NCBI RefSeq assembly: GCF_003334815.1
Contig: NZ_QOWO01000088.1
Source of the DNA: Escherichia coli
GTDB taxonomy: Bacteria; Pseudomonadota; Gammaproteobacteria; Enterobacterales; Enterobacteriaceae
Reading direction: 5' to 3' (one strand)
Length of the DNA stretch: 2,230 nt
A program made the translations under genes and the position numbers. Below, piece after piece: positions 1-2,230 of this stretch. Under the pieces are notes generated by a model. The model was given only the letters and a program-made list of their open reading frames with translations. It searched no databases and was not told where the DNA came from. Positions within the stretch are counted from its first letter, which is position 1, and every line of letters starts with the position of its first letter.

Positions 1-23
1 CTTTTCAAAAGGGTATTTTGGCT

Positions 24-52
24 TTGACATATTAGGGGCTATTCCATTTCAT
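24..52 (+). promoter_or_regulatory. Candidate sigma70 promoter upstream of yjiX: consensus -35 TTGACA (24..29), 17-bp spacer, weak -10 TTTCAT (47..52)
   Basis: Read directly from the sequence. The -35 is a perfect consensus hexamer but the -10 matches TATAAT at only 4 of 6 positions. This region may instead be the 3' end or intergenic tail of an upstream gene. No experimental basis. Confidence 0.2.
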
Positions 53-108
53 CGTCCAACAAAATGGGTGCAGTACACGGCGGGGCTTTGTTCTTATCAG
101 AGTGAACT

Positions 109-312
109 ATGTTTGGTAACTTAGGACAGGCAAAAAAATATCTCGGCCAGGCGGCGAAGATGTTGATTGGCATTCCAGACTACGACAACTACGTCGAGCA
201 TATGAAGACCAACCATCCCGACAAGCCGTACATGAGCTATGAAGAATTCTTCCGCGAACGCCAGAACGCACGCTACGGCGGCGATGGTAAAGGCGGTATG
301 CGCTGTTGTTAA
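109..312 (+). CDS. yjiX: Small DUF466-family protein (YjiX/YbdD-like, 67 aa), the type usually encoded next to a CstA/BtsT-family transporter gene
   Basis: ATG at 109 to TAA at 310..312, 67 aa. The translation ([67 protein letters not shown]) matches the short YjiX/YbdD family as I recall it, and it sits immediately upstream of yjiA as in E. coli. The Shine-Dalgarno sequence is weak (GAGTGA). Confidence 0.85.
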
Positions 313-322
313 TGGAGAGAGC

Positions 323-1279
323 ATGAACCCGATTGCAGTTACCCTACTCACCGGTTTTTTAGGCGCGGGCAAAACCACCCTGCTGCGCCATATTCTTAAC
401 GAACAACACGGCTACAAGATTGCCGTGATTGAAAACGAATTCGGCGAAGTCTCCGTTGATGATCAACTGATTGGCGACCGCGCCACGCAGATCAAAACGC
501 TGACCAACGGCTGCATCTGCTGTTCGCGCTCCAACGAGCTGGAAGACGCACTACTCGACCTGCTGGATAATCTCGACAAGGGCAATATTCAGTTCGACCG
601 TCTGGTCATTGAATGCACCGGCATGGCCGATCCCGGCCCGATTATTCAGACCTTTTTCTCCCATGAGATTTTATGCCAGCGCTACCTGCTGGACGGCGTG
701 ATTGCGCTGGTGGATGCGGTACATGCCGATGAGCAGATGAACCAGTTCACCATCGCCCAGTCCCAGGTTGGCTACGCCGACCGTATTCTGCTGACGAAAA
801 CCGACGTCGCAGGCGAAGCAGAGAAACTGCGTGAACGCCTGGCGCGCATCAACGCCCGCGCACCGGTCTACACCGTTACCCACGGCGATATCGACCTGGG
901 CCTTCTGTTCAACACCAACGGTTTTATGCTGGAAGAAAACGTCGTCAGCACCAAACCGCGTTTCCACTTTATCACGGACAAACAAAACGATATTTCGTCG
1001 ATTGTGGTGGAACTGGATTACCCGGTAGATATCAGCGAAGTTTCCCGGGTGATGGAAAACCTGCTGCTGGAGTCGGCGGATAAACTACTGCGTTACAAAG
1101 GGATGCTATGGATTGACGGCGAACCTAACCGCCTGCTATTCCAGGGCGTCCAACGCCTCTACAGCGCCGACTGGGACCGCCCGTGGGGCGATGAAAAACC
1201 GCATAGCACGATGGTGTTTATCGGGATTCAGTTGCCGGAGGAAGAGATTCGGGCAGCGTTTGCGGGGTTGAGGAAGTAA
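323..1279 (+). CDS. yjiA: COG0523/CobW-family P-loop GTPase (G3E-type putative metal chaperone), 318 aa
   Basis: ATG at 323 preceded by GGAGA (314..318); stop TAA at 1277..1279. Walker A motif GFLGAGKTT at residues 11-19 (nt 353..379). The family-defining CxCC metal-binding motif GCICC is at residues 63-67 (nt 509..523). Length and N-terminus (MNPIAVTLLTGFLGAGKTTLLRHIL...) fit E. coli YjiA. The ORF-track start at 239 is an upstream in-frame ATG inside yjiX and is rejected in favour of 323. Confidence 0.95.
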   Translation: MNPIAVTLLTGFLGAGKTTLLRHILNEQHGYKIAVIENEFGEVSVDDQLIGDRATQIKTLTNGCICCSRSNELEDALLDLLDNLDKGNIQFDRLVIECTGMADPGPIIQTFFSHEILCQRYLLDGVIALVDAVHADEQMNQFTIAQSQVGYADRILLTKTDVAGEAEKLRERLARINARAPVYTVTHGDIDLGLLFNTNGFMLEENVVSTKPRFHFITDKQNDISSIVVELDYPVDISEVSRVMENLLLESADKLLRYKGMLWIDGEPNRLLFQGVQRLYSADWDRPWGDEKPHSTMVFIGIQLPEEEIRAAFAGLRK

Positions 1280-1290
1280 TTTTGGATGAT

Positions 1291-1321
1291 GGCCGCCATG
1301 TGGCGGCCTGAATTATTTTTT
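1291..1321 (+). terminator. Putative intrinsic terminator after yjiA: stem GGCCGCC/GGCGGCC with ATGT loop (1291..1308), then a T6 tract (1316..1321)
   Basis: Perfect 7-bp GC-rich inverted repeat seen directly, 12 nt after the yjiA stop. The T-tract is separated from the stem by 7 nt (TGAATTA), which is suboptimal. It lies in the 33-bp gap between the convergent yjiA and brnA genes. Confidence 0.45.
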
Positions 1322-1615
1322 GTTCTGATCGCGCAGCATCGCTTCACGTAAAATTGCGTTCAGGCGAGTTTGATAGCCTTTACCTGGTCGCTTCAACCAT
1401 TCCATCACATCAGCATCAATACGCACCGAAGCCTGAGTTTTCAATGGCCGATAAAACTTACCGCGTTCGGCGTTAGACCATTGCTCATCGCTGGAAGGTG
1501 GGATATCACTGTAATCAATATCTTCGTCGGATTTATTCGCCAGCGCCTTCAGTTCGGCCTCATGCTGCACATCGAGTGTAGAGGAGGTCCCTCGTTTATG
1601 TTTAACCATGCTCAT
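1313..1615 (-). CDS. brnA: BrnA-family antitoxin (DUF4415, ribbon-helix-helix-type DNA-binding C-terminus), 100 aa
   Basis: ATG at 1615..1613 preceded by a strong Shine-Dalgarno sequence (AAGAGAGGA, 6 nt upstream on the minus strand); stop TAA at 1315..1313. The translation (MSMVKHKRGTSSTLDVQHEAELKALANKSDEDIDYSDIPPSSDEQWSNAERGKFYRPLKTQASVRIDADVMEWLKRPGKGYQTRLNAILREAMLRDQNKK) has the acidic D/E-rich middle and the GKGYQTR-N-LRE C-terminal signature I associate with BrnA. The 29-aa N-terminal extension in the ORF track (start 1702) is out-of-frame read-through across the brnT 3' end and is rejected. Confidence 0.8.
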   Translation of the reverse strand: MSMVKHKRGTSSTLDVQHEAELKALANKSDEDIDYSDIPPSSDEQWSNAERGKFYRPLKTQASVRIDADVMEWLKRPGKGYQTRLNAILREAMLRDQNKK

Positions 1616-1878
1616 AGCGATTCCTCTCTTTACGATCTGCTTTTCGTGCACTGATGATTCGAATAATTTCATTTCCGCTTTCGAAACGGATGGTATGCGC
1701 AACCAGAATAACCACGATGCCGTAATGTCTGCCAGCGATACTCACCGTTTTCTATGCGTTCTTGCTGTGACAAATGTTGTGGATCATCAAACAATAACAC
1801 CGCATCTTCAAAGCGGATGCCATGTTTCACCCGATTACTTTTGGCCTTGTTTTCATCCCATTCAAACTCCATTGGCAT
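1602..1878 (-). pseudogene. brnT: BrnT-family toxin (DUF497, RelE-like fold ribonuclease toxin) disrupted by an apparent +1 frameshift near 1722
   Basis: The N-terminal half (MPMEFEWDENKAKSNRVKHGIRFEDAVLLFDDPQHLSQQERIENGEYRWQTL) reads in the frame of the 1669..1905 ORF. The conserved C-terminal half (GIVVILVAHTIRFESGNEIIRIISARKADRKERNRYEHG, stop TAA at 1604..1602) is in a different frame that has no start codon. Removing one base around 1722 (minus-strand ACATTA-C-GGCATC) would join them into one 91-aa ORF of typical BrnT size. The reconstructed 3' end overlaps the brnA start by 14 nt, the usual toxin-first brnTA layout. The start is ambiguous: ATG at 1878 (preferred, with GGGATGG 5 nt upstream), 1887 or 1872. 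Confidence 0.6.
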
Positions 1879-1893
1879 AATTGCCATCCCTAA

Positions 1894-1905
1894 TTGTATA
1901 TACAA
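1894..1905. promoter_or_regulatory. Perfect 12-bp palindrome TTGTATATACAA just upstream of the brnT start; candidate operator for the BrnA/BrnTA repressor
   Basis: Exact self-complementarity seen directly in the sequence. It lies 16 nt upstream of the preferred brnT start codon in the AT-rich leader. Ribbon-helix-helix antitoxins typically autoregulate through palindromic operators. Function is inferred, not shown. Confidence 0.3.
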
Positions 1906-1960
1906 AAATGTATCTACAATTATTCTGCAATTATAGCGTTGATGTTGGAAATAGCATCAC
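1906..1960 (-). promoter_or_regulatory. Candidate brnTA promoter region: consensus -10 TATAAT on the minus strand (1935..1930) with a poor -35; direct repeat CAATTAT at 1917..1923 and 1928..1934
   Basis: Hexamer and repeats read directly. The -35 match is weak (ATGCTA at 16-bp spacing). An alternative pair, TTGTAG/TACAAT, overlaps the palindrome at 15-bp spacing. Promoter assignment is tentative. Confidence 0.2.
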
Positions 1961-1992
1961 GTTTCGAATAATCAACCATGAAATTGACAATG

Positions 1993-2003
1993 AGTAAGTT
2001 GGA
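1993..2003. repeat. 11-nt inverted copy of the IS1 terminal-repeat core (AGTAAGTTGGA, reverse complement of TCCAACTTACT at 2071..2081)
   Basis: Exact 11-mer reverse-complement match seen in the sequence, 58 bp outside the IS1 terminus. It could be a relic of a second, inverted IS1 end or a chance match; 11 nt is short. Confidence 0.3.
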
Positions 2004-2061
2004 CTTGATTCATCCAATAGAATTTCTCGCCTGACATGGCACACTAAACACCTCGCTGTCG

Positions 2062-2084
2062 GGTAATGACTCCAACTTACTGAT
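2062..2084. repeat. IS1 terminal inverted repeat (GGTAATGACTCCAACTTACTGAT)
   Basis: Matches the recalled canonical IS1 right inverted repeat (GGTAATGACTCCAACTTATTGAT) with one substitution (T to C at 2080). This marks the IS/chromosome junction at 2061/2062. Confidence 0.85.
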
Positions 2085-2230
2085 AGTGTTTTATGTTCAG
2101 ATAATGCCCGATGACCTTGTCATGCAGCTCCACCGATTTTGAGAACGACAGTGACTTCCGTCCCAGCCTTGCCAGATGTTGTCTCAGATTCAGATTATGT
2201 CGCTCAATGCGCTGAGTGTAACGCTTGCTG
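2077..2230 (-). CDS. insB: IS1 transposase InsB, C-terminal 50 codons (partial; 5' end lies beyond the window)
   Basis: Minus-strand translation in from the window edge gives ...[50 protein letters not shown], with stop TAA at 2079..2077 inside the terminal repeat, as in IS1. It is absent from the ORF track because it has no in-window start codon. Confidence 0.85.

Follow-up and report, generated by a model that had tools for sequence, protein, structure and literature searches.

The Immigration Control Region (ICR) of Escherichia coli and other Enterobacteriaceae is defence hotspot 36 and is bounded by the anchor genes yjiA and yjiN (PMC12707154, 2025 review). The stretch of DNA analysed here, which we will call the window, is 2230 bases long; it includes the left anchor of the region and stops inside one end of an IS1 element. 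The locus raises the question of what this IS1 borders. It could open onto restriction and defence genes lying just outside the window, as an initial annotation of the sequence proposed, or it could mark the place from which such genes have been removed. The evidence points to the second answer: positions 1280-2230 are very probably the left edge of the ICR in a haplotype that has lost its restriction cargo by deletion, with the region downstream of the window in the source genome read from its relatives.

The boundary downstream of yjiA

In the window, yjiX and yjiA are encoded on the plus strand and brnA, brnT, and the IS1 transposase on the minus strand. The features and their coordinates are listed in Table 1. 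The YjiA protein scores 682 bits against the NCBIfam equivalog model PRK11537, for which the cutoff is 361. A BLAST comparison with K-12 MG1655 gives 97% identity over 78-1279 and no match beyond, and the last K-12-homologous base, 1279, is the final base of the yjiA stop codon. The switch from conserved to accessory DNA directly after yjiA, which had been recognized in the initial annotation, is therefore located to the base. The same annotation judged by eye that the GC content is lower past about position 1300, and the computed values bear this out, with a drop from 0.537 (78-1279) to 0.439 (1280-2062) and a value of 0.364 in the spacer at 1879-2062.

Accessory DNA follows the yjiA stop codon without a gap, from 1280, and consists of a terminator, an opposite-strand brnA-brnT operon of the type II toxin-antitoxin class, and an AT-rich control region. 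The terminator past yjiA had been mentioned before and is found as a hairpin with a T-run; the hairpin is the sole terminator-like site in the window. This terminator is part of the accessory segment; the sequence that follows yjiA in K-12 differs and is REP-like. The IS1 end had also been reported, and its terminal repeat is present past the toxin-antitoxin cassette, from where the element runs to the end of the window.

Table 1. Features of the window, with positions counted from its first base
Feature	Position	Strand	Basis or remark
IS150, terminal 77 nt (IRL end)	1-77	(-)	transposase gene directed away from yjiX
Right arm of split btsT terminator and yjiX leader	78-108	(+)	identical to EC6622 from 78 onward
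yjiX, YbdD/YjiX family, 67 aa, conserved framework gene	109-312	(+)	ORF list; RefSeq annotation of identical genomes; Pfam PF04328 on record
yjiA, COG0523/CobW-like GTPase, 318 aa, conserved left ICR anchor	323-1279	(+)	NCBIfam PRK11537; RefSeq annotation in identical genomes
Intrinsic terminator-like hairpin GGCCGCC-ATGT-GGCGGCC and T-run	1291-1321 (hairpin 1291-1308)	(+)	7-bp all-GC stem
brnA antitoxin, intact, 100 aa	1313-1615	(-)	Pfam PF14384; RefSeq WP_000063156.1 in identical genomes
brnT toxin pseudogene	1602-1878	(-)	aligned against the intact L002 and L004 alleles; translated
AT-rich spacer, 184 bp, GC 0.36	1879-2062		control region that once separated brnT from the divergent restriction-endonuclease gene, now lost
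IS1, IRR end, first 168 nt	2063-2230	(-)	terminal repeat GGTAATGACTCCAACTTACTGAT at junction

Alternative contents of the ICR

The left ICR anchor is in the window itself, and the right anchor is seen in relatives that are identical to it over 78-2230. In K-12, yjiA is followed by mrr, hsdR, hsdM, hsdS, symE/symR, mcrB, mcrC, yjiV, yjiT, yjiS, yjiR, rpnD, and mdtM. The window shares with the K-12 ICR the locus, the left anchor btsT-yjiX-yjiA, and the presence of variable DNA directly after yjiA. On the other hand, the content of the window haplotype is limited to brnA, a brnT pseudogene, and a single IS1. The distance from the yjiA stop codon to mdtM is ~20 kb in K-12 and ~1.8 kb in the relatives of the window.

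Other strains carry other genes at this position. In Ecol_656 and C25, brnA-brnT comes first, and then a restriction endonuclease gene, hsdM, hsdS, hsdR, symE, yjiS, yjiR, rpn, and mdtM. A draft genome with an identical YjiA protein (L018) has GmrSD, hsdRMS, and symE after yjiA. In E. coli C, yjiS-yjiR is preceded by a DUF262/GmrSD-type gene and a fragment of hsdR. Together with the K-12 synteny, four alternative contents are found past the yjiA stop codon, namely mrr, DUF262/GmrSD, brnTA with restriction-modification genes, and brnTA with IS1, in agreement with the earlier identification of the locus as the ICR and as hypervariable between strains. Its description as the edge of a variable defence island is accurate for the locus at the level of the species. 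It does not apply to this haplotype, where the cargo has been removed, as judged from the relatives.

The toxin-antitoxin systems of the ICR include brnAT, symE-symR, and rpn, and type I systems are present in only 36% of ICRs (PMC12707154), so defence-poor alleles appear to be common. One such allele is the 'empty site' ICR of the restriction-less E. coli C (Sibley & Raleigh 2004, via PMC12707154). Like the window haplotype, it is a natural allele without functional type I restriction-modification, mcrBC, or mrr; unlike the window haplotype, it has neither brnTA nor IS1. The two alleles arose independently. Identity of the window allele with this published empty ICR was considered and rejected, since strain C has the DUF262 gene and the hsdR fragment. 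The ICR borders, the brnAT module, and restriction-less alleles have all been published already, and the feature described here is of an already known kind, being a canonical ICR border with a decaying known toxin-antitoxin module and an ordinary, widespread IS1 deletion scar.

The IS1 as a deletion scar

The IS1 of the window is an IS1F-like variant, ~9% diverged from IS1A. In the genomes that are 100% identical to the window from position 78, its transposase is annotated with a programmed frameshift. EC6622 is 100% identical to 78-2230 and contains the complete 768-bp IS1 (L001, 21985-22752). When EC6622 is compared with Ecol_656, homology is interrupted precisely from the left to the right end of the IS1, and 11,269 bp of the cargo-bearing allele (L004, 20791-32059) are replaced by the IS1. 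On the left, the break lies 13 bp upstream of the restriction endonuclease start codon (in L004, the CDS starts 14 nt past the equivalent of 2062). On the right, it falls within the rpnD-mdtM spacer, 270 bp before mdtM, and the right flank of the IS1 is 96.8% identical to the K-12 rpnD-mdtM spacer.

A 9-bp target-site duplication around the EC6622 IS1 is absent, and the two flanks, ...CGCTGTCG and AAATTTTAA..., differ. Because there is no target duplication, and because the flanks are 11,269 bp apart in the cargo-bearing allele, the IS1 is a deletion scar and not a simple insertion. One-ended adjacent deletions are classical IS1 behaviour. The present case resembles them in that the IS1 is kept, one junction is fixed, the other is variable, and no target duplication is found. 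Compared with the classical deletions, nothing is unusual in the window lineage.

The likeliest route to this scar is insertion followed by an IS1-promoted adjacent deletion. The IS1 would first have inserted upstream of the endonuclease gene. Its IRL end would then have promoted a one-ended adjacent deletion while the junction on the IRR/brnT side stayed fixed, and the same IRL end would later have yielded additional deletions and inversions within sub-lineages. Alternatively, two IS1 copies may have recombined with each other; the scar expected from this is the same and is here indistinguishable from that of an adjacent deletion.

Downstream of the IS1 in the closest relatives

Twenty-four genomes match the window over 78-2230 at 99.9-100%, including an 11-bp deletion in brnT. 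In 19 of them, brnA, the brnT pseudogene, IS1, and mdtM are contiguous, with mdtM within 270 bp of the IS1, and yjiN, yjiM, and onward genes come after it. In LHM10-1 and CP52E (2/24), the IS1 is followed by ytiD and yjiC, the result of a further deletion of mdtM through iraD. In the last three (SCU-172, AF3, and MSB1_4I), the segment from this IS1 to a second copy near yjiC is inverted. The initial annotation expected the cargo of the island to lie past the IS1. What lies there in 19 of the 24 relatives is mdtM, and the other five have lost or inverted core genes. A direct return to conserved genes, which the annotation itself had named as the outcome that would contradict it, is thus what these 19 genomes have, and the state of the source genome is deduced from them. 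No restriction or defence genes were found beyond the IS1, nor any restriction-modification or type IV genes from yjiA to mdtM, in any of the 24 nearest relatives; none of their ICRs carries defence genes.

Among the relatives, the left IS1 junction is constant and the right side is variable, a pattern that fits repeated activity of one IS1 end. Since five of the 24 relatives differ downstream, the IS1 is an active rearrangement point. Deletions of differing extent from one IS1 end are also seen in the classical IS1-promoted adjacent deletion. In the genomes examined, one old IS1 copy has repeatedly yielded one-sided deletions and inversions that reach the yji core genes.

Distribution among complete genomes

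The post-yjiA brnTA segment is present in 2113 of the 5426 complete E. coli genomes, always as a single copy, and ~1000 of these 2113 genomes are without the IS1. The exact brnT-side/IS1 junction of the window was found in at least 1113 of the 5426; counts of this kind are lower bounds. Two types of junction occur on the right side of the element. The EC6622 type is present in 451 genomes; in the second type (663 genomes), a dienelactone-hydrolase fragment adjoins the IS1 and immediately precedes mdtM. Both run on to mdtM, and their total of 1114 is about equal to that of the left junctions. Nearly all genomes that have this IS1 thus continue straight to mdtM. As judged from the sequences, two right junctions on one left junction would need two independent deletions or recombination.

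These counts bear on the proposal of the initial annotation that the IS1 is a simple insertion in an intact, cargo-bearing island with its defence genes just outside the window. The two inspected brnTA genomes without the IS1 do have a restriction endonuclease and a type I restriction-modification system after brnT, the identical YjiA protein of L018 does adjoin a GmrSD and hsdRMS island, and the source genome is not among the records searched. The proposal is nevertheless very improbable, because the brnT/IS1 junction of the window is matched almost one to one by right junctions leading to mdtM, because the genomes that share the 11-bp brnT deletion have no defence genes after the IS1 (0/24), and because the IS1 is without a target duplication. 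Deletion of the cargo accounts for these observations, and in this haplotype the IS1 is the far wall of the island and not a door to its cargo.

The cargo-free ICR, consisting of brnTA and IS1, is present in about one fifth of the complete E. coli genomes. With the allele at this frequency, the combination of yjiA, a toxin-antitoxin module, and an insertion sequence is no sign of the entrance to a defence island. Cells of this haplotype are predicted from their gene content to be without any ICR-encoded restriction and modification, and the predicted loss of ICR restriction may matter for DNA uptake.

The brnA-brnT module

The initial annotation described the accessory genes as a toxin-antitoxin cassette with an inactivated toxin, and this is what the alignments show: brnA is intact and brnT is broken by the 11-bp deletion. 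The domain calls for both proteins are from Pfam, as the NCBIfam search gave no model matching BrnA or BrnT. BrnA matches PF14384 over residues 37-93 (E = 3.1e-17). Relative to the intact alleles, the lesion in brnT is a deletion of ACCAGGCCGAT between 1726 and 1727. BrnT has 95 amino acids; in the window the frame is correct to residue 51, after which 18 out-of-frame codons lead to a stop at 1669-1671. In an intact BrnT ortholog, PF04365 spans residues 7-88 (E = 4.7e-24). As a result, roughly half of the domain is gone, and the window does not encode a complete BrnT_toxin domain. The gene is annotated as 'frameshifted' in 24 genomes.

The arrangement of the genes is that of the BrnT/BrnA prototype of Brucella abortus, a type II system with a ribonuclease toxin that its antitoxin neutralises, in which the toxin gene is likewise upstream of, and overlaps, the antitoxin gene, and both Pfam domains are found. 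In contrast to the prototype, the toxin of the window is cut at residue 51 of 95, leaving an orphan antitoxin that is known here from its sequence. The 11-bp frameshift would have arisen later than the IS1-associated events, in a small clade. The module is predicted to have no addiction or abortive-infection activity.

The orphan brnA could have been retained for a function of its own, either in anti-addiction against incoming brnTA plasmids or as a transcription factor, and need not be a decaying remnant. Its reading frame is undamaged, strains with an intact toxin carry the same allele, and its candidate operator is preserved. This explanation is very unlikely. The loss of brnT is recent, being confined to only ~24 near-identical genomes, so the intactness of brnA is no signal of selection. 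Also, E. coli plasmids have essentially no close homologue of BrnT, and the BrnT proteins of plasmids are mostly from Acinetobacter, with at most 58% identity. An anti-addiction role of the orphan BrnA is unsupported for the same reason, there being no close plasmid-borne BrnT in E. coli.

The spacer between brnT and the IS1 contains an inverted repeat (1891-1904/1909-1922) with 14-nt arms that are 93% complementary. This repeat is a candidate BrnA operator. A promoter scan of the window gave no convincing minus-strand promoter for brnTA. An Rfam search of the window gave a single ribozyme match, which at 21.5 bits (E = 0.29) fell below the gathering score of 37 and was taken as chance.

The left flank and the IS150 end

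Both ends of the window lie within repeats, the left one exactly 77 nt deep, which suggests that it is a whole short-read contig. The source assembly would therefore have no linked sequence downstream. Because the window ends inside both repeats, there is some room for two further readings, in which the rearrangement-prone IS1 of the source genome borders something other than mdtM, such as newly acquired, IS1-flanked cargo, or the yjiXA-brnA block bracketed by IS150 and IS1 has been mobilised as a unit. Taken together, these are very improbable.

A related explanation is that the yjiX-yjiA-brnA-brnT' segment has been moved or captured, for example by IS-mediated rearrangement onto a plasmid or to another chromosomal site, and is not at the ICR. 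An IS end borders the segment on each side, inversions between IS1 copies are seen in the relatives, and a 22-kb plasmid record (NZ_LT985269.1) has yjiA'-brnA-brnT-IS1 beside APH(6)-Id. The IS150 end, on the other hand, abuts the native btsT-yjiX spacer inside the btsT terminator, as in a simple insertion in situ. All but one of the 2113 brnTA matches (2112) are chromosomal, and the IS150 junction was found on no plasmid searched. Relocation of the segment is accordingly regarded as extremely unlikely, and a position at the left edge of the ICR is preferred. An origin from a plasmid or phage-plasmid was rejected separately, as the large 'plasmid' matches look chromosome-sized or chromosomal.

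The IS150 end at 1-77 is absent from the initial annotation. IS150 belongs to the IS3 family, and the remainder of this copy, with its 3-bp duplication, falls beyond the start of the window. The 77 nt are identical to an IS150 copy of EcPF16, and the ends of annotated IS150 copies match over 89-100 nt at 94-99%. In EcPF16, the IS150 CDS is encoded on the other strand, with its start 47 nt in from the end of the element. The junction of IS150 with yjiX was found in none of the 5426 complete E. coli genomes and in none of the plasmid records searched, and an exact look-up of the YjiA protein gave ten contexts, with IS150 in none of them. The insertion point is the loop of the btsT terminator hairpin. 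The uninterrupted site, AGCCCCGCTT directly followed by CGGCGGGGCT, is present in EC6622, and the arrival of IS150 in the btsT terminator of the source genome would be a later event.

IS1-mediated rearrangements at the yjiA locus

In the relatives of the window, a single IS1 left junction, on the brnT side, is combined with two alternative right junctions (L001, the EC6622 genome, position 22753 vs L002, a comparison genome with an intact brnT allele, position 21562). The right junction lies in the rpnD-mdtM spacer in 451 genomes and at a dienelactone hydrolase fragment in 663 genomes. Since one left junction is shared by two right junctions, the latter arose either from two deletions by the same IS1 or from recombination. 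In sub-lineages (the set L006, L007, L008, L023, and L024), a second deletion by the same IS1 has removed the region from mdtM to iraD, and an inversion has occurred between this IS1 and a neighbouring IS1 copy near yjiC, which is still annotated as IS1A in SCU-172. Core genes at this locus thus continue to be lost through this IS1 copy.

IS150 insertion and the ends of the window

IS150 has cut the btsT terminator in two, which could affect the expression of yjiX-yjiA. Its junction was found in none of 5426 complete E. coli genomes, nor in PLSDB plasmids. The 12 nt beyond the element end are still matched in many IS150 hits; the sequence following an unrelated IS150 copy in EcPF16 (L003 6078-6089) is CGACGGGGCTTT, and that at window positions 78-89 is CGGCGGGGCTTT. 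This likeness may be due to chance, or IS150 may favour G-rich terminator arms as targets. In EC6622, a hypothetical gene of 180 amino acids is located between tsr and btsT, and it has not been seen among the other relatives inspected.

The window begins exactly 77 nt inside IS150 and its other end, at position 2230, falls within IS1. A short-read contig interrupted at repeats (k = 77) would have such ends, and the source assembly is therefore probably without linked flanking sequence.

Coordinates of features in the window and in EC6622
Feature	Position	Description
IS150 end (IRL)	window 1-77, junction 77/78	inserted in the btsT terminator hairpin loop, upstream of yjiX
YjiX	window 109-312	
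Inverted repeat, 14 nt	window 1891-1922	TAATTGTATATACA / TGTATCTACAATTA; starts 13 nt upstream of the brnT start codon
Hypothetical gene	L001 16997-17539	

YjiX-YjiA and brnTA

YjiX, with the C-terminal end ...MRCC, scores 62 bits against the NCBIfam "KCU-star family selenoprotein" model, under the cutoff of 85, and YjiA also shows a weak match to the "CobW-related selenoprotein" model. Together, YjiX and YjiA look like a cysteine version of a selenoprotein/GTPase module.

The inverted repeat upstream of brnT is a candidate autoregulatory operator. Elsewhere, the 22 kb plasmid NZ_LT985269.1 (an E. coli record) carries at 18262-19554 a partial yjiA, brnA, an intact brnT, and an IS1 end, adjoined by APH(6)-Id; this segment is apparently a chromosomal fragment captured through IS activity.
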